Positions 29,192 to 48,173 of a stretch of DNA of 64,000 nt are shown piece by piece; position 1 is the first letter of the stretch, and each line of letters starts with the position of its first letter. This DNA comes from a phage. The position numbers and the translations under genes were made by a program. The DNA is taken from the sequence record PX880099.1; one strand, given 5' to 3'. Under the pieces are notes generated by a model. That model saw only the letters and a list, made by a program, of their open reading frames with translations, had not been told where the DNA came from and made no database searches.

Positions 29192-29416
29192 TTAAAATGG
29201 AAGTCTTTGAAGTTCATCTCCTCCGATATCAAGTAATTTAGCAACATCTCGATCAGAAAGCAACTCTTTTCTTTGTAAAATATCCACAAGGGTTGCAAGA
29301 ATGTCCTTAACGTCCCGATCACTGTTCTTCAAAAGTTCTCCTGCCGTCCCTACCCTATCTCCTACAGCAAAATATGTAACCATAAAACCTCCTACGCTAA
29401 TCTGATTGCCAACCAC
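29192..29416 (-). CDS. hypothetical small protein
   Basis: 74 aa ORF overlapping nrdG start region. Confidence 0.4.
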   Translation of the reverse strand: MVGNQISVGGFMVTYFAVGDRVGTAGELLKNSDRDVKDILATLVDILQRKELLSDRDVAKLLDIGGDELQRLPF

Positions 29417-29867
29417 TCGCCGTTTTGGTCCATAATCTTTGATTATCTGACCCTCTGAAAGGTTTTGTGGTTGGATTGTTTATTTCATACTTTCCGTCTA
29501 CAATAATGTCAACAAGATTTTTAATATACAAAGGCACTTCCTCAAAAGTATATCCTGTATACACCATTATATCTTTGCTTGACCCATAAACGTCTCTAAC
29601 CTTTTCTATAAGGTTTTTAACATTGTAAATATTCTGCGGATCTAATGGTTCTCCTCCTAAAATTGTTAAACCTTTTACAAACGGTCTTGACAAATCTTTT
29701 AAAACTTGCTCTACATTTTCGTTAGTGAACGGTTTCCCATAAGAATAAGACCAGGCTTTCTGGTTAAAACAGCCACGACAACCGTGGCTACAACCACTAA
29801 CCCAGAGGGAGCACCTAACTCCCTCACCATTAATAAGATCTACAGGTTCATATCCTGCAAAATTCAA
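29397..29867 (-). CDS. nrdG: anaerobic ribonucleotide reductase activating protein (radical SAM)
   Basis: CSHGCRGC radical-SAM-type cysteine motif; immediately downstream of nrdD with 4-nt overlap. Confidence 0.85.
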   Translation of the reverse strand: MNFAGYEPVDLINGEGVRCSLWVSGCSHGCRGCFNQKAWSYSYGKPFTNENVEQVLKDLSRPFVKGLTILGGEPLDPQNIYNVKNLIEKVRDVYGSSKDIMVYTGYTFEEVPLYIKNLVDIIVDGKYEINNPTTKPFRGSDNQRLWTKTASGWQSD

Positions 29868-31678
29868 AGATGTTTCTCCCTTTGCAAAACTTCCTGCATT
29901 TTACCTTTGTTATAAGGCCGTGAATTAGGGGCAGAAAGATACCCTGATACACGTCTAACTACAGAAATAGTTTCTTCTTCATGGTTGCCACAATTAGGAC
30001 ACTCAAACCCTTTAGCCGTTGCCTTAAATTCTCCATGAAAACCACACTTAAAGCATTGATCCACGGGCTGATTAATACCAAAATAGTGAATATGTTCATA
30101 AGCGTAGTCTACTAAAGTCTCCAAAGCTTCTAAGTTATTCTTTAAGTTTGGTGTTTCGACATAACTTATGTTACCACCATTGCTAATCTGTGCAAAACCT
30201 GCTTCATAATCCCATTTTTCAAAAGGATTTGTTACCAACCATACAGGTTGATGAAAAGAATTAGTAAGATAGTCTCTTTCTACCAGACCTGGATATTTTT
30301 CATTTAAAGCTGTTGCAAATTTATAGCACAAGGATTCTGCTGGAGTTCCATAAAGACTAAATGCCAACTTAGATCGTTCTTTAAACACAGCACACACATC
30401 TTTCATATGTTGCAGAATGTTTTTACCTAGTTCCTTTTTATCTTTTTCCTCTGGATAAAGGATTTCCAAAGCTTCGGCAAGACCTACATAACCAATACTA
30501 ATAGAAGCATAACCACCTTCAAACAAAGCACCAATTTCATCGTTGGCATTTAAACGCGCTAAAGCCCCTTCCATGAAAAGAATAGGGTTTTCAGATGCTT
30601 TGGTATGTCTGATACGGTTTACACGTAGCATGTGAGCATCGTAGGCTATCTCCATATGTTTATTAAGAAGATCGGTGAAAGATTCTCCTTTACTTCTCGC
30701 TTCCGCAGCAATCAGAGGCAAGTTGATAGAAACTACTCCAAGGTTGAATCGTCCATCATATTTTTCTCCTTGTTCGGTGGCATAGTACGACAAAAAGGAA
30801 CGACAACCCATACTCGTAACGGTACCATCTGCTGATCCCGTAACTTCTTTGTTCAAAGGAACAGAAATAAAATCTGGATAAATACGATCAGCACAACATG
30901 CCAAAGCTTGTTGCTTAAGGTCGTAGTTAGGATCACTAGGTTTCATGTTAACACCTTCTTGTAAAAAGAAAATAACTTTAGGGAATACAGGCGTTACATG
31001 ATCTTTACCTAGACCGTTACTATGCACTTTAAGATAGTTAGCTGTGATCATTCTGCCAAAAACAGAGGTATCCAGACCCATACTGATTGTAATAAAAGGA
31101 GATTGTCCATTAACACTCATTAAAGTGTTAACCTGATACAAAAGAGTTTGCATAGCGTCATATACATCTTGTTCGGTCATTTCTAGGGCTTCTTTCCTTG
31201 CATAACAACCGTAGCGACGTTTGGTTATCTCCATGTTTTTAAGGAAACTGGCTTCAACATAAGGACTAAGACCTTTATCAATGTGCGCACACGTCTGACC
31301 TCCATACTGACTGGAGGCAACAGCTTGGATGATTTGAGTTAGCACTGTAGTAGCTACTCCAATAGATTTTGGTTTTTCTATCTGTGCAGCACCGATCTTA
31401 AAACCATTCTCTAACATATCTTGATAATTAACAAGACAACAGTTTGTAAGAGGAGAGAGCAGATAATCCAAGTCGTGAATATGTCCAAAACCTTCTGTAT
31501 GCCATTCTGACAAGTTTTTTGGCAGTATCTGTGTCATTGCCATATGTTTGCTTAAAATCCCCGCCAAGAGATCCCTGTGCGTGTTAACAAGGTGGGAAGG
31601 TTTGTTTGCATTCTCTCTAGTGTATGTTTCTGAAGTGCGATCTAAAAAAGAAAAAACATCTTGGTACAAATCTTTCAT
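29864..31678 (-). CDS. nrdD: anaerobic ribonucleoside-triphosphate reductase
   Basis: 604 aa; C-terminal CFKCG..CPNCG zinc ribbon and glycyl-radical motif RRVSGYL. Confidence 0.9.
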   Translation of the reverse strand: MKDLYQDVFSFLDRTSETYTRENANKPSHLVNTHRDLLAGILSKHMAMTQILPKNLSEWHTEGFGHIHDLDYLLSPLTNCCLVNYQDMLENGFKIGAAQIEKPKSIGVATTVLTQIIQAVASSQYGGQTCAHIDKGLSPYVEASFLKNMEITKRRYGCYARKEALEMTEQDVYDAMQTLLYQVNTLMSVNGQSPFITISMGLDTSVFGRMITANYLKVHSNGLGKDHVTPVFPKVIFFLQEGVNMKPSDPNYDLKQQALACCADRIYPDFISVPLNKEVTGSADGTVTSMGCRSFLSYYATEQGEKYDGRFNLGVVSINLPLIAAEARSKGESFTDLLNKHMEIAYDAHMLRVNRIRHTKASENPILFMEGALARLNANDEIGALFEGGYASISIGYVGLAEALEILYPEEKDKKELGKNILQHMKDVCAVFKERSKLAFSLYGTPAESLCYKFATALNEKYPGLVERDYLTNSFHQPVWLVTNPFEKWDYEAGFAQISNGGNISYVETPNLKNNLEALETLVDYAYEHIHYFGINQPVDQCFKCGFHGEFKATAKGFECPNCGNHEEETISVVRRVSGYLSAPNSRPYNKGKMQEVLQREKHL

Positions 31679-42852: not shown

Positions 42853-43209
42853 ATGAAAAAACTAATCTTAGCCACATTGCTGGCTACCGTAAGCTTCACC
42901 ACTTACGCTCAAAAATTTGTAGCAGTTAAAACAGATATTGGTAAAGATGTTGTGATCACAGGCAACAAGTTTTACTATACACCTGGGAATGGTGTTCTAG
43001 AAGAGTGTAAAGATGTTGAGGCATATACGGGAAAAGAAGATAACACGGAACGTCCTTTTTATTCGATTATAGCTACTTGCAAAAATGAAATAGTAGCTAT
43101 TAAACAATACAAAGATGCCCCTGGAGGAGAATACTTATTAGTCAAGAATATTAAGAGTGAAAAAACTGCAAAGTTTACAGTAATTATTTTAAAAGGAGAA
43201 ACGTTCTAA
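42853..43209 (+). CDS. secreted protein (signal peptide)
   Basis: Start set at ATG after SD GGAGGGAAG; MKKLILATLLATVSFTTYA signal peptide. Confidence 0.5.
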   Translation: MKKLILATLLATVSFTTYAQKFVAVKTDIGKDVVITGNKFYYTPGNGVLEECKDVEAYTGKEDNTERPFYSIIATCKNEIVAIKQYKDAPGGEYLLVKNIKSEKTAKFTVIILKGETF

Positions 43210-44348
43210 TGAAATACACTATTTTTGGAGATGTAGCTGTTGTAAATAAGGAATATGGCGTTGAAGCTAATAAACTTCCTGCTGGAGTTTGGGTTGTCAA
43301 CTGCGATCCGCACGGTAACTACTCTTTAGTGCGTGGTGAAAGTTTCTCTCTTCCGAACACTCTTTATGGGGAAACTAAAGATCGCGCCGCACATGTTATT
43401 AAAACATTTGCTCGTCGTAGTAAAGAAGGTAAAAATACTGGGGTGTTACTGACAGGGACAAAAGGCAGTGGTAAGACGATGTTAGCTAAACTTATTAGCA
43501 TGTCTCTAATGTCCACAGAAGGTTTAGGTATTCCAACCATTTTGGTTACACAGCCTTACACAGATGCTGGCTTCTTAGAATTTATGAGTAAAATTACAGA
43601 TCGTGCTGTTGTTTTATTTGACGAATTTGATAAAGTGTACGCTAAGAAAGAAGATCAGGAAGCACTGTTGACCTTGTTGGATGGAACAGGAAGTGGGAAT
43701 AAACTTTACATCCTCACTAAAAATAGTGGTTATATCTCGGAATATTTTGTAAACCGTCCTAGTCGTATCTACTACAGTTTCAATTACGATAAACTGTCTA
43801 GTGAAACTATGTTAGATTACTTGGATAAGAACTTGGTAAATAAAAAGCACGTAGATAACTTCCAACGTTTATGGGATGTTAGCACAGAGTTGTCTTTCGA
43901 TGTTATTCAAGGCATTGTAGAAGAATTGAATTTCTATCCAAAAATGACTTTTAAAGAATGTCTTGAAATGATGGGTATTTCTTTAGGGAACGATGCTAAA
44001 TGGAATGTGGCTTCTATCGTAGCTAATGGCAAAACCTTGAAGGTGAATTGGATCAATAACTGGCACGACTTCACCCCTACTAAGTTTTTGTCGGGCGCTT
44101 GTTCCCTGAACATCTATCTACAAAGTTTGAAAGATGATGAAGTGGAAGCAATGGAAACCAACAGTTATGTTATCCTGGATGAAGATGGTGATCCACATAT
44201 TGATCTATGTGCAACGGCTGATGGTCTAACTTGTGATCTGATTGAAGGTGGTAAGATTCTGGTTATGAGCACTACACCAGGAAACACTTTGCGAGTGGTG
44301 CTGGAGCCTGTAACACAACGTTCCACTACACTTGGTAGCGTGTTCTAA
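43209..44348 (+). CDS. AAA+ family ATPase
   Basis: Walker A LLTGTKGSGKT; Walker B VVLFDEFDK. Confidence 0.65.
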   Translation: MKYTIFGDVAVVNKEYGVEANKLPAGVWVVNCDPHGNYSLVRGESFSLPNTLYGETKDRAAHVIKTFARRSKEGKNTGVLLTGTKGSGKTMLAKLISMSLMSTEGLGIPTILVTQPYTDAGFLEFMSKITDRAVVLFDEFDKVYAKKEDQEALLTLLDGTGSGNKLYILTKNSGYISEYFVNRPSRIYYSFNYDKLSSETMLDYLDKNLVNKKHVDNFQRLWDVSTELSFDVIQGIVEELNFYPKMTFKECLEMMGISLGNDAKWNVASIVANGKTLKVNWINNWHDFTPTKFLSGACSLNIYLQSLKDDEVEAMETNSYVILDEDGDPHIDLCATADGLTCDLIEGGKILVMSTTPGNTLRVVLEPVTQRSTTLGSVF

Positions 44349-44353
44349 TAAAG

Positions 44354-44380
44354 ATGCCCCGCAAGGGGCATTTGTTATGG
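44354..44380 (+). terminator. rho-independent terminator
   Basis: ATGCCCC-gcaa-GGGGCAT hairpin followed by TTGTTAT. Confidence 0.5.
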
Positions 44381-44438
44381 AGGGATTTTAGTTATTCTTT
44401 TGTTGTAGGCTCGCACTAATAGCTAAAGGGGGGGAGGT

Positions 44439-45899
44439 GTGCCAAAAATAGTCACTTGGGAACAATATAAAACAGATATAAAACAAGCTTATCAAGGTAA
44501 GTCTTGGACTGTTGTAGATTATATTGAGCCGTGGAACGGCAATAAAACTAAACTTAGATGCATCTGTGCTCTGCATGGAGAATGGAAAACAACAAGCATA
44601 AATACCGCTAAACTAGGGAGGGGTTGTCCAGAATGCGGTAGGGAGATTATAAGTAAAGCAGTATCTATAAACAAATCAAAAACCTGGGAGCAATATAAAG
44701 AAGAAGTGCAAACCACTTACAATCAGGCAGGTAAGTTTTGGACTGTTACAGGATGGCACGGAGAATGGAAAGGATGGAATACTAAACTGGTTTGTTGTTG
44801 TGCTTTACATGGGGAGTGGAGGTCTACTTCTATATCTTCTGCGAAAAACGGGAGTGGATGCAGGAAGTGTATGGGAGAAGCAAACAGAGAAAGAACATCG
44901 ATTGCATGGGAGCAATATAAAGAAGAAGTAGAAGAAGCTTATAAAGAAAAACCCTGGATTGTTAGAGGCTATGTGGAACCGTGGAACGGTTCCCGCACTA
45001 AGTTGATTTGTGAGTGTAAGGTTCATGGTCAATGGTGCACTACCACTGTAAACAGTGCTAAACAAGGGACTGGATGCTACAGTTGTCAAAGAGAAATGAC
45101 GAAACAAAGGAATACAATGGAGGATAAACAACATGTTGAAGATTTTATAAAAGCTTGTCCTGATAATGTAGAGCGTAAATATTATCGTAGCGATAGAGTA
45201 GATAGATTAGGTCGTCAGGTTTACTGGATTGTAGAATGTCCTATATGTGCAGAGGATGATTATTGTAAAGAAGGCTTATGCGATAATAAATTTGAGATGA
45301 AGATGAGTCATTTGAAAAGGGGTGGCCTTCCTTGCCGTTGTTCTAAATATTATCATTACACTCCTGAACAATGGGCCTACCGTATGACCAAAGCTTGCCA
45401 GGAACGAGGGGATCAATTTATAGGATTCATTGATAAGGTAAGCAATAACAGCAAGTTTAAATATCTATGTAGGGAGCATGGAGAGCAAACGATCACACCT
45501 ACCGATTATCTCAATGGGAAAGGTTGTCCAGGCTGTAAGAACAGAAATATGCAAGAATTTTACATCAATATTATTCTTGATGAGTACGGAGAAGACACGG
45601 GAGCTTACAAGTTGGGGATTGCAAAGGACAGTGATATCAGGATCAAAGGGCAGAATGCAAACAACAATTACTCTATGCGCCGTATAGCATTGTTCGATCT
45701 GCCGTCCTACCAAGCTTGCAGGGCGTTAGAGAGTAAGCTAAAGTCTAAGACTGATCAGATTCTACCGTCTATTGGCTGTGTAGAACGCTTGCACATGAAA
45801 GATGGTCATAGTGAAACCTTCCTGCGCGAGGATTTGGCTATCGTCTTAAGTGCTATCAACCAAGCAGGTGGAATAATGAGAGAGGAGGAAACATGTTAG
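44439..45899 (+). CDS. Cys-rich protein with three tandem zinc-ribbon-like repeats
   Basis: GTG start after G-rich SD; module W.G..TKL.C.C..HGEW.T.S......G.GC..C repeated three times, then a Cys/His-rich C-terminal domain. Confidence 0.55.
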   Translation: MPKIVTWEQYKTDIKQAYQGKSWTVVDYIEPWNGNKTKLRCICALHGEWKTTSINTAKLGRGCPECGREIISKAVSINKSKTWEQYKEEVQTTYNQAGKFWTVTGWHGEWKGWNTKLVCCCALHGEWRSTSISSAKNGSGCRKCMGEANRERTSIAWEQYKEEVEEAYKEKPWIVRGYVEPWNGSRTKLICECKVHGQWCTTTVNSAKQGTGCYSCQREMTKQRNTMEDKQHVEDFIKACPDNVERKYYRSDRVDRLGRQVYWIVECPICAEDDYCKEGLCDNKFEMKMSHLKRGGLPCRCSKYYHYTPEQWAYRMTKACQERGDQFIGFIDKVSNNSKFKYLCREHGEQTITPTDYLNGKGCPGCKNRNMQEFYINIILDEYGEDTGAYKLGIAKDSDIRIKGQNANNNYSMRRIALFDLPSYQACRALESKLKSKTDQILPSIGCVERLHMKDGHSETFLREDLAIVLSAINQAGGIMREEETC

Positions 45900-46258
45900 T
45901 TGACGTTCAAATTATGCGCAACGAAAGAATGGACTTCTTTGAAGCAGTAGAGAAACATCTGATCAGATGGGACTATGAATTTGTTCCTGCTGGATGTGGA
46001 CCAGTAGAGCATTTAGCGGAAGACGACGATGTATACATGATCATTCGTCAAGTGTACCAGACAGACCAGTGTGAAGAAACTCCCGAACTGATTTTGTTTG
46101 AGTGTAAAGATCTTGCAAAATATTTTGACTATGGCGGAAAAGAGGGTCATAATCTCTCCAGATACAATAAACGTCTACTTATCTTAGACTACATGCGGAA
46201 CAACAAACACAAACTCATCGACGCAGACGCAGTTTATGGCTACTGGTGGATGGACTAA
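45893..46258 (+). CDS. hypothetical protein
   Basis: 121 aa; SD GAGGAGGAAA before ATG. Confidence 0.5.
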   Translation: MLVDVQIMRNERMDFFEAVEKHLIRWDYEFVPAGCGPVEHLAEDDDVYMIIRQVYQTDQCEETPELILFECKDLAKYFDYGGKEGHNLSRYNKRLLILDYMRNNKHKLIDADAVYGYWWMD

Positions 46259-46271
46259 CAAAGGAGAAACT

Positions 46272-46451
46272 ATGGCACGTTTAGCAGATCATGAAATCTT
46301 TAAACCTATTCTGAACCACTATGATGAACTTAAAGCAGTGTTGGATTGTTATAGAGAGGATGAAGAACGTTTGGAAGTCAATCTTAAGATAGTTCTGATG
46401 AAAGCTTTTCAAGACGGGCAAGCTAAAGTTTTAGAAGGCATGAAAAAATGA
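46272..46451 (+). CDS. hypothetical small protein
   Basis: Start set at ATG after SD AAAGGAGA. Confidence 0.45.
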   Translation: MARLADHEIFKPILNHYDELKAVLDCYREDEERLEVNLKIVLMKAFQDGQAKVLEGMKK

Positions 46452-46990
46452 GAATAACTGATGAATATGTATTCTTCTTTTCACATAAAGATGTGTTTAG
46501 TAATTGGTATATTGCACCCTTTACAGAAACTGAACCAGGTTACAATGAGACTTTCTGTTGTGTTGAGCAATATATGATGTGGCGTAAGGCTTTGCTGTTC
46601 AAGGATCATGCGATTGCAGCAGCTATCCTTGATCACTCAACTATACGTGACAACGAGAGGAAACAAGCATACTACAAACGTATGGGTCGAGCGGTATCTG
46701 GTTTTAATAATGATATGTGGGAAGAGAACCGTGAGCGTATTGTTATGCGAGGCTTATGCTTGAAATATGTACAGAATCCAGATTTGTATGCAGACTTACA
46801 CCTTTACCAATACAAAACGTTTGTTGAAGCAAATCCTTACGATAAGGTTTACGGTATTGGAATGGGAATGTATGAACCAGGGGTGCTAAACCCTGCTACC
46901 TGGAAAGGGCAGAATCTTTTAGGCAAATATCATAATAAACTGATCGAAATACTTTTCCCAGACAAAATACCGCAAAGACGATATTTGTGA
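46448..46990 (+). CDS. NADAR-family (YbiA-like, DUF1768) protein
   Basis: FFFSHKDVFSNWY..FCCVEQYMMWRKA..RKQAYYKRMGR..YGIGMG resembles the NADAR/YbiA domain. Confidence 0.6.
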   Translation: MRITDEYVFFFSHKDVFSNWYIAPFTETEPGYNETFCCVEQYMMWRKALLFKDHAIAAAILDHSTIRDNERKQAYYKRMGRAVSGFNNDMWEENRERIVMRGLCLKYVQNPDLYADLHLYQYKTFVEANPYDKVYGIGMGMYEPGVLNPATWKGQNLLGKYHNKLIEILFPDKIPQRRYL

Positions 46991-47042
46991 TATTTTAACT
47001 TTTTTCATTTTTAGAACAAAGGTGTCACTTTGTAGCACAGAA

Positions 47043-47078
47043 ATAAGGCTCCTACAGCACCGTAGAGAGCCTGTTATT
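47043..47078 (+). terminator. rho-independent terminator
   Basis: GGCTCCTAC-agcacc-GTAGAGAGCC hairpin followed by TGTTATTTTG. Confidence 0.55.
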
Positions 47079-47234
47079 TTGTCCTATACAAACCCTTGTC
47101 TTTTTCAGTTTGCATCACTAGGATTCGATCTGAGTGGGTTCCTGAAGGTTTACCAATAAGATTAAAGGTTATATCAAATTCCCACTATCTTTTATCTCAA
47201 AAATCCCTCAAATTATTTAAACTTTTTAAGAATT

Positions 47235-47420
47235 TACAAAAGTGAAAGTTGAAAACCAAAATTTAAAGTTTAGGAAAATTATCTTAAAATGTTAGATACA
47301 AAACAAAACTCAAAAGTCAAGGAAAATTTTAAAAATTTTGCGCGCCCACAGTATTTAAAGTTTTTTTGCTTTTACAAAAATGAAAGTACAAAAGCAAAAT
47401 TTAAAGTTTACAAAAATTTT
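47235..47420. repeat. two copies of a ~46-bp AT-rich direct repeat
   Basis: TACAAAAgtGAAAGTtgaAAAccAAAATTTAAAGTTTAggAAAATT at 47235-47280 repeated with few changes at 47374-47420. Confidence 0.6.
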
Positions 47421-47461
47421 TATGCAGGTGAAAATGAGAAGAGTTCTCATATGGAAATGCA

Positions 47462-47480
47462 AATGATAATGATTCGCATT
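47462..47480. promoter_or_regulatory. Fur-box-like palindrome
   Basis: TGATAATgATTcgCA versus 7-1-7 consensus TGATAATnATTATCA; flanked by palindromic AAATGC..GCATTT. Confidence 0.3.
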
Positions 47481-47519
47481 TAAGTTTATAAATGAGATTG
47501 ATTCTTATTTAATAAGGTA

Positions 47520-47538
47520 AATGACAATCATTCTCATT
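47520..47538. promoter_or_regulatory. Fur-box-like palindrome
   Basis: TGAcAATcATTcTCA, two mismatches to 7-1-7 consensus. Confidence 0.3.
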
Positions 47539-47798
47539 TAGAGAATGACGCGCAGGGGCGGTGTTTGTCTCGCGCTCCCGTGTCCACTCGCCATGTAATA
47601 AGAATAACAGATCCAGCCAGGAAAGCAAGCGATTATTTTATCTTTACATTTCTTTACAAATATATAGCACCCAGCCTACCGGCGATCAACCTTCCAACCA
47701 GTGCCCCCTGGTATGTTAGCCCCGCCTTTACGCCGTGGGGTGGCGCTTCCTCTTCTGTATGTAAAACAGTATAAGCCCGATCCCTGGGCTTGTCAAGA

Positions 47799-48065
47799 TT
47801 ATTTTTTGTTTTCTTGCCAGGATAGGACACCTAACCAAAAATACATATCGCCCCGCGCCCCTGGTGGTATCTTGCTTTCCCCGCCGCCACTGCAAGCCCA
47901 TAGATAACCATTTGCGAACGTATCAAAATGATCTATCTCTTCCACCTTATGATCGCCCAGGTTGAGAACGGTTTCAACCTTTAAGCCCGTTGCGCTTGCT
48001 ACCTGGTGCACCGTGCCGCCTTGCCAGCCCAATGAGTGCATAAGGTGTAATGTAGTATTTGTCAT
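47799..48065 (-). CDS. hypothetical protein on opposite strand in GC-richer island
   Basis: 88 aa ORF; only - strand gene between two + strand blocks; real C-terminus may be shorter. Confidence 0.4.
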   Translation of the reverse strand: MTNTTLHLMHSLGWQGGTVHQVASATGLKVETVLNLGDHKVEEIDHFDTFANGYLWACSGGGESKIPPGARGDMYFWLGVLSWQENKK

Positions 48066-48173
48066 GATATCGCCCTTTCTTTGTTGTGCGCCCTGGTTGG
48101 CGCGGTAGAAAGATAATAGCCCTTTTCTTTATATATAGCAAGCAAAAAGAAAATAAAAAAGATTGAAAAATGG

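Follow-up and report, generated by a model that had tools for sequence, protein, structure and literature searches.

The window analyzed here, 64,000 nucleotides of sequence record PX880099.1, comes from a Phapecoctavirus (phAPEC8-like coliphage) genome that is 99.9% identical to phAPEC8_ev052. On its plus strand, positions 44439-45899 encode a protein of 486 amino acids with a GTG start, composed of five CapR-homology zinc-finger modules and a predicted C-terminal GIY-YIG/T5orf172-like domain. Upstream lies an ATPase gene (43209-44348; an AAA-type ATPase in RefSeq relatives), followed by its intrinsic terminator at 44352-44379 on the plus strand, a hairpin with a 9-bp GC-rich stem, a 4-nt loop and a UUUGUUAU tail; RefSeq annotates a terminator at this position in phage Schickermooser. 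Downstream, a gene for a 121-aa protein occupies 45893-46258. The first-pass annotation had described a GTG-started 486-aa reading frame that follows an AAA+ ATPase and a terminator, and both parts of this description proved accurate. An in-frame TAA lies three codons before the GTG at 44439, and no start codon occurs earlier in the open frame; homologues of the protein open with MPKIVTWEE at the same point, which supports the GTG as the start. A GGAGG lies only 1 nt from the GTG; this spacing and the GTG itself point to weak expression, which is frequent among homing endonuclease genes (HEGs). A scan for sigma-70-like promoters upstream of the GTG, as far as the terminator, returned no site, and apart from the terminator hairpin no structure was predicted for the leader RNA (z -0.14). 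In the 64-kb window, Rfam and tRNA searches gave no match.

RefSeq gives the product of this gene the name "endonuclease", and most GenBank records call it "hypothetical protein". PHROG 681, labeled "endonuclease", covers the protein over its full length (E 2.5e-84), and a tblastn search with the protein against deposited phages returned 316 records. A search of the Phapecoctavirus literature yielded nothing specific on the gene. A tblastn search for paralogues in the 64-kb window found none; one weak match at 30118-29987 (E 0.043) was rejected as a paralogue, since it is the C-terminal zinc ribbon of NrdD.

The protein contains a Cys/His motif, W.G..TKL.C.C..HGEW.T.S....K.G.GC..C, which had been reported to occur three times; a regular expression locates the three copies at aa 32-66, 110-144 and 182-216, and no others. 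The N-terminal repeat units that carry them are ~75 aa long and are 42-47% identical to one another in protein and 57-59% in DNA, with local stretches of 38-83 nt that reach 75-82% nucleotide identity. Each unit is laid out as a helix starting WEQYK, three strands, and a helix beginning at the CxxC. The whole protein matches Pfam PF21817, the CapR homology domain (67 profile positions; gathering threshold 24.2 bits), in five stretches with 99.7 bits and E 1.1e-28. When scanned singly, each module matches nearly the whole CapR profile, with modules 2 and 3 slightly below the cut-off on their own. Because each unit alone matches CapR, the repeats are neither chance nor low complexity; and because modules 4 and 5 match CapR when scanned piecewise, the "further CxxC pairs" that had been noted toward the C terminus are two more CapR-type fingers. 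Thus, the first-pass count of three tandem modules is right for the N-terminal repeats and falls short of the total of five, and the family, which had gone unrecognized, is a described one.

All five modules lie on the plus strand. Module 1 (aa 1-78; 44439-44672) scores 26.5 bits against CapR (E 7.5e-6, profile positions 2-67), with C43, H46, C63 and C66 as its probable ligands. Module 2 (aa 79-155; 44673-44903) scores 22.2 bits (E 1.7e-4); its probable ligands, C121, H124, C141 and C144, are kept in all six homologues that have this module. In module 3 (aa 156-228; 44904-45122; 23.2 bits, E 7.9e-5), the probable ligands are C193, H196, C213 and C216, of which the three cysteines are invariant in 25 of 25 homologues and the histidine is present in 19 of 25. 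Module 4 (aa 229-305; 45123-45353) matches with 41.9 bits (E 1.2e-10) and is the canonical CapR-type finger, CxxC...CxC, formed by C267, C270, C299 and C301; module 5 (aa 306-372; 45354-45554) matches with 38.2 bits (E 1.7e-9) over profile positions 1-67, with C344, H347, C363 and C366 as ligands. In both of these modules, all four positions are invariant in 25 of 25 homologues, the additional CxxC pairs included.

Not every cysteine of the motif behaves in this way. The first Cys of "C.C" is not conserved (C191 is found in 9 of 25 homologues and C119 in 3 of 6); conservation is instead seen at the second Cys, at the His of "HG" and in the CxxC, so that the probable ligands are C-x2-H...C-x2-C. 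From these patterns we infer that modules 1-3 and 5 share this ligand set and that module 4 uses CxxC...CxC. The protein has the two ligand pairs, ~20-28 residues apart, that characterize CapR domains, and their spacing is conserved among homologues, contrary to the earlier concern that the repeats might be artefacts with no conserved Cys spacing. The CxxC...CxC of module 4 is the motif that was mutated in CapR, where changing its Cys to Ser abolishes binding to DNA (Netter et al., 2021; PMC8096241). By analogy, the modules of the 486-aa protein would bind DNA in a sequence-specific, zinc- and Cys-dependent manner. The proposal that tandem zinc modules point to nucleic-acid recognition is likewise upheld at the level of sequence, since the modules are predicted CapR DNA-binding domains.

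The full-length AlphaFold model of the protein has a pLDDT of 84.6. In the AF2 model, the pairs C63/C66, C141/C144 and C213/C216 are placed at the N-terminal ends of helices H64-79, H142-152 and H214-226, respectively. This position of the second ligand pair suggests that the finger geometry is treble-clef-like and not that of a classical zinc ribbon. Among relatives, 15 of 25 match Pfam DUF4379, a "probable treble clef zinc finger". A Foldseek search of the full-length model against the PDB returned noise only (TM about 0.1, mostly tandem dsRBD proteins), which we attribute to the beads-on-a-string nature of the protein.

The remainder of the protein, aa 373-486 (45555-45896, plus strand), is predicted to adopt a GIY-YIG fold. 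A Pfam scan of the whole protein detected no nuclease family. For the isolated C-terminal domain, the sole Pfam match is T5orf172 (PF10544), with 13.9 bits and E 0.078, below the gathering threshold of 20 bits, in an alignment that spans positions 3-86 of the 101-position profile; this signal surfaced only in module-by-module scans and in scans of relatives. T5orf172 and MUG113 are the only recurring non-finger Pfam families among family members, with 12 of 25 and 6 of 25, respectively. When relatives were sought with the C-terminal domain alone and those sharing it were clustered at 50% identity, 18 of the resulting 76 representatives matched T5orf172 and 17 matched MUG113. The 92CQ allele, which occupies the same slot and is 38% identical to the 486-aa protein (E 3e-72), passes the T5orf172 threshold at 22.2 bits. 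Because the score of 13.9 bits is below threshold and the relation runs through transitive homology, we label the domain "T5orf172-like".

Several polar residues in this domain are strictly maintained. K391, G393, R401, E431, D455, G456 and E459 are invariant across the 76 representatives, and the set Y375, K391-L-G393, R401 and E431 is unchanged in 25 homologues; Y375, K391-x-G393, R401 and E431 are the candidate active-site residues. In GIY-YIG nucleases, strand 1 carries a conserved Tyr and strand 2 the x-x-G, the catalytic Arg follows eight residues beyond this Gly, and the catalytic Glu sits on the helix that comes after strand 3. The second GIY-YIG motif has a Lys in place of the Tyr, a replacement that is usual for T5orf172. 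Both AF2 models, full-length and domain-only, are confident, and the domain is confidently predicted to have the beta-beta-alpha-beta-alpha core of the GIY-YIG fold. In a profile alignment, R401 and E431 pair with R148 and the catalytic E180 of Odn from phage ICP1, in an hhalign match that is statistically weak (E 0.031, probability 1.6%). PDB sequence searches with the 486-aa protein and with the 76-sequence profile gave no match to any solved GIY-YIG nuclease. Together, the profile matches, the structural models and the conserved residues place the C-terminal domain in the GIY-YIG superfamily, near T5orf172. The nuclease motifs whose presence in this region had been left in question are thus represented by a predicted GIY-YIG-fold, T5orf172-like domain with invariant candidate catalytic residues.

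The gene fills most of a variable cassette of ~1.5 kb (44379-45882, plus strand), which comprises the 5' leader and nearly the entire reading frame and is represented by 9 bp in phiWec188. The terminator of the ATPase gene forms the left border: homology with other phages passes through it and stops at 44373-44378, ending at 44378 in ukendt and at 44373 in phiWec188. Homology resumes at 45883 in ukendt and at 45884 in phiWec188, inside the last five codons of the gene. This right junction (45883-45899, plus strand), which we compared among the window, ukendt and phiWec188, encodes (E)EETC* as GGAGGAAACATGTTAG, a sequence in which the 121-aa gene downstream has its Shine-Dalgarno and its ATG (45893) and which is kept in the empty site. 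The alleles retain ...EETC or ...EEIC tails because the next gene has its native ribosome-binding site and its start codon within their last codons. In the empty site of phiWec188, where the terminator follows the stop codon of the ATPase gene, 9 bp separate this terminator from the Shine-Dalgarno and ATG with which the 121-aa gene starts. The locus therefore has a property expected of a HEG, a discrete cassette that lies between conserved genes and is precisely absent from a related phage.

A further property expected of HEGs is turnover at a single site, and divergent alleles do occupy this slot in near-identical genomes. The ukendt slot holds a 402-aa allele with two N-terminal modules that is 33% identical to the 486-aa protein, between flanks that are 97-98% identical. 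Across near-identical phages, slot alleles are 33-68% identical and have one, two or three N-terminal modules; same-slot alleles range from 329 to 486 aa, and their flanks are 94-99% identical. Locus spans of ~4200, 3930, 3900 and 3725 bp across records indicate alleles with three modules, two modules and one module. In a set of 25 family members, 16 show the one-module pattern and 4 the two-module pattern, 3 more fall in those length classes with no clean pattern match, 1 is shorter, and only the PX880099.1 allele has three N-terminal modules. The slot is also occupied in the sister genus, in 92CQ and in phi92, where gp222 comes immediately after the ATPase.

No empty site was seen among close relatives (flanks at least 94% identical), and the only one found is that of phiWec188, whose flanks are 74-84% identical. 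Because the sole empty site belongs to this diverged phage, ongoing homing is not demonstrated by these comparisons, and alleles could be exchanged by ordinary recombination in the flanks. Mismatches between the window and ukendt, counted in 200-nt bins on both sides, showed no enrichment beside the cassette of the kind that co-conversion or a target site would leave, and the same comparison revealed no detectable SNP clustering next to the cassette and no cleavage site.

On this evidence, the gene is probably a free-standing HEG of the CapR-domain/T5orf172-like lineage in Phapecoctavirus. The first-pass annotation had ventured that the protein is perhaps homing-endonuclease-like, and the CapR modules, the T5orf172-like domain and the HEG-type cassette all favor that suggestion. 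We propose that the protein would work as a "beads-on-a-string" enzyme, in which five zinc-binding CapR modules jointly read an extended DNA site and the C-terminal GIY-YIG-fold domain cuts near the bound site, with R401 and E431 as candidate catalytic residues. When two phages infect one cell, the enzyme would cut a partner genome without this allele at the corresponding locus, likely at or near the junction of terminator and ribosome-binding site that separates the ATPase gene from the 121-aa gene. The cassette would then be copied into the cut locus as the break is repaired from the HEG-bearing genome. Gain, loss and exchange of N-terminal modules would alter the length and specificity of the target, and these changes may have been helped by the 75-82% nucleotide identity between repeats. 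Module turnover of this kind would account for the competition of one-, two- and three-module alleles for one slot.

A bolder version of this idea is a modular DNA-reading code, in which each ~75-aa finger reads a fixed number of base pairs; we think it improbable that the fingers work in this way. On such a code, adding or swapping a module would retarget the nuclease, and the slot alleles of Stephanstirmvirinae would form a natural series. Toward it count the modules themselves, which fold independently, differ in number between alleles and have a nucleotide similarity that favors recombination.

The same observations can be read in other ways. If the gene were a domesticated HEG, whose active nuclease is kept as a weapon or defence against a co-infecting phage, satellite or plasmid and not for its self-copying, the slot should look retained. 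Virtually all close relatives surveyed do have it filled, as does the sister genus (92CQ, phi92 gp222), a pattern more like retention than like a passing parasite. The invariance of the catalytic-type residues fits an active nuclease of this kind, and there are precedents in the action of ICP1 Odn against PLE (PMC8263062) and in a similar co-option proposed in E. coli phages (PMC10448857). However, allele turnover, variable module number and the empty site of phiWec188 are predictions of selfish HEG turnover, and no satellite or competitor is known that a domesticated enzyme would target. We therefore regard domestication as unlikely; it and the selfish-HEG reading are not exclusive.

We would be more surprised to find that the protein is a nuclease-dead DNA-binding regulator, whose finger array represses or tunes transcription as CapR does, with the C-terminal domain as a scaffold; its binding site could in that case lie close to the gene itself, in the stretch from the terminator to the downstream gene. 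CapR is a repressor built from the same DNA-binding domain (PMC8096241), and I-TevI also acts as a repressor (discussed in PMC10448857). The T5orf172 score below the Pfam cut-off would suit a dead nuclease domain, and the overlap of the gene's 3' end with the downstream Shine-Dalgarno and ATG would suit a regulator. Yet CapR has no nuclease domain, whereas the 486-aa protein retains a confidently predicted GIY-YIG fold, and the invariance of an Arg, a Glu and other polar residues over 76 diverged relatives is hard to explain if the domain is dead. Nor would a regulator be expected to be absent from phiWec188 or to be swapped for 33%-identical alleles in 98%-identical genomes. For an artefact, that is, a chance reading frame or a low-complexity Cys-rich repeat devoid of function, we found no support, the weak points of the gene being only its GTG start and its position after a terminator. 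The full-length PHROG family match, the 28 homologues with invariant ligand positions, the confidence of both AF2 models and the annotation of the gene in many deposited genomes leave this explanation a negligible probability.

Our preferred reading, a free-standing HEG, opens no new category of biology: proteins of this kind are already published, and the gene itself is present in many deposited genomes. What this analysis adds is the assignment of this Phapecoctavirus gene to the CapR/T5orf172 HEG kind, together with the five-module parse, the C-x2-H refinement of the ligands, the fold evidence for the nuclease domain, and the recognition that alleles turn over at this locus, for which an empty site is identified. 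For annotation, "hypothetical protein" can give way to CapR-domain, GIY-YIG/T5orf172-like putative homing endonuclease. The view of zinc-finger-array T5orf172 HEGs, so far based on ICP1, is widened to a widespread E. coli phage group with use in biocontrol collections. The empty site and the one-, two- and three-module alleles provide a natural series for relating finger number to specificity, and the locus offers such tests sharp cassette borders and a 3' end constrained by the ribosome-binding site of its neighbor. Should the modular code prove true after all, it would supply a novel scaffold for programmable DNA binding, together with a model of HEG specificity change that can be tested directly.

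The 486-aa protein can be compared with several known systems. SLX1 and At-HIGLE are eukaryotic repair nucleases with a RING/PHD partner domain. These URI/GIY-YIG structure-specific enzymes are 13% identical to the 486-aa protein, a likeness of shared fold that implies no functional relationship. In I-TevI and the free-standing T4 GIY-YIG endonucleases SegA-G, the nuclease domain is N-terminal, and the DNA-binding parts are HTH, NUMOD or a single zinc finger. By contrast, the order is reversed in the 486-aa protein, which has a CapR-finger array and a C-terminal nuclease-like domain; HMMER detects no sequence similarity between it and the T4 Seg proteins or I-TevI. CapR, the repressor of the PLE capsid operon, needs four conserved Cys for DNA binding in EMSA (PMC8096241). 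It shares the PF21817 zinc-finger DNA-binding domain with the 486-aa protein but is a 15.5-kDa single-domain repressor, not a protein of five modules and a nuclease-like domain. Odn (Gp88) of ICP1 is an experimentally proven T5orf172 origin-directed nuclease, and its E180A mutant loses cleavage (PMC8263062). Like the 486-aa protein, Odn has a T5orf172-type domain of the GIY-YIG superfamily, although the two align weakly (E 0.031); Odn is domesticated against the satellite PLE.

ICP1 also encodes Gp165 (ORF165), annotated "putative homing endonuclease", which the 486-aa protein matches in tblastn with E 2e-23 and 29% identity over aa 175-479. Gp165 is among the five ICP1 proteins for which a fusion of CapR homology domains with T5orf172-like domains was defined (Netter et al., 2021; PMC8096241). 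Both proteins have N-terminal CapR zinc-finger repeats and a C-terminal T5orf172-like domain, and both score just below the Pfam T5orf172 cut-off (18 bits for Gp165, 13.9 bits for the 486-aa protein). Both genes are free-standing, both lie in lytic myovirus genomes, and both products are putative endonucleases. Variation in repeat number between alleles, as reported for ICP1 gp174, is also seen at the Phapecoctavirus slot. The two differ in lineage, an E. coli Phapecoctavirus versus the Vibrio Mohonavirus of Gp165, and in their CapR-type stretches, of which the 486-aa protein has five and Gp165 four; further, the three N-terminal modules of the 486-aa protein have C-x2-H...C-x2-C, as opposed to the CxxC...CxC emphasized for CapR. 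In T5orf172 HEGs, repeats of CapR, DUF723 or DUF4397 zinc fingers are a regular feature, and the number of finger repeats changes by recombination (Barth, Dunham and Seed, 2023; PMC10448857). The 486-aa protein fits this published description of CapR/T5orf172 HEGs exactly.

The phage profile PHROG 559, annotated as 'HNH endonuclease', matches positions 44460-45182 of the window (aa 8-248 of the 486-aa putative homing endonuclease) with an E value of 5.1e-25, over positions 126-329 of the 607-position profile. This match is confined to the finger array of the protein, so in other phages the same kind of CapR module is also fused to HNH nucleases, a case of domain shuffling. Within the 64-kb window, the sole other tblastn match to the 486-aa query is a weak one, to the C-terminal zinc ribbon of NrdD, the 604-aa anaerobic ribonucleotide reductase encoded with its 156-aa activase NrdG on the minus strand (29397-31678).

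In the predicted structure model, each of the three N-terminal modules (44439-45122) adopts an alpha-beta-beta-beta-alpha order. When the full-length model was searched with Foldseek, most hits were tandem dsRBD proteins (TARBP2, Loqs, R2D2, DRB4 and TRBP), at low probability, and aa 27-53 match Pfam DSRM_2 with an E value of 0.069. As seen in the full-length model, modules 1-3 may weakly resemble the dsRNA-binding domain in topology.

One homologue of 669 aa (P0002), from a 22-kb Logan contig, carries fingers, nuclease, fingers and nuclease in a single ORF, that is, two complete endonuclease units arranged head to tail. This protein could have arisen by loss of a stop codon joining tandem homing endonuclease genes, or else could be an artefact of assembly or gene calling.

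Two genes downstream of the endonuclease gene lies a 180-aa ORF (46448-46990) whose public annotation is inconsistent, with deposited genomes labeling it variously as DUF1768, 'GTP cyclohydrolase II' or 'YbiA-like N-glycosidase'. The following ~1.2 kb (46990-48170) lacks a long ORF and contains four promoter-like matches on the plus strand (TTTACA/TTTAAA-N17-18-xAAAAT; 47233-47435); in phage Schickermooser, the annotation of the corresponding region shows phAPEC8_00257 broken into frameshifted fragments. This stretch may be a regulatory region or a decaying gene.

Phage phiWec188, which has an empty site in place of the endonuclease cassette, diverges unequally from the window on the two sides of that site: identity is 74% on the ATPase side (43208-44373) and 83.5-92% on the downstream side (45884-47548). 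This asymmetry is consistent with the idea that boundaries of genetic exchange coincide with the positions of nuclease genes (PMC10448857).
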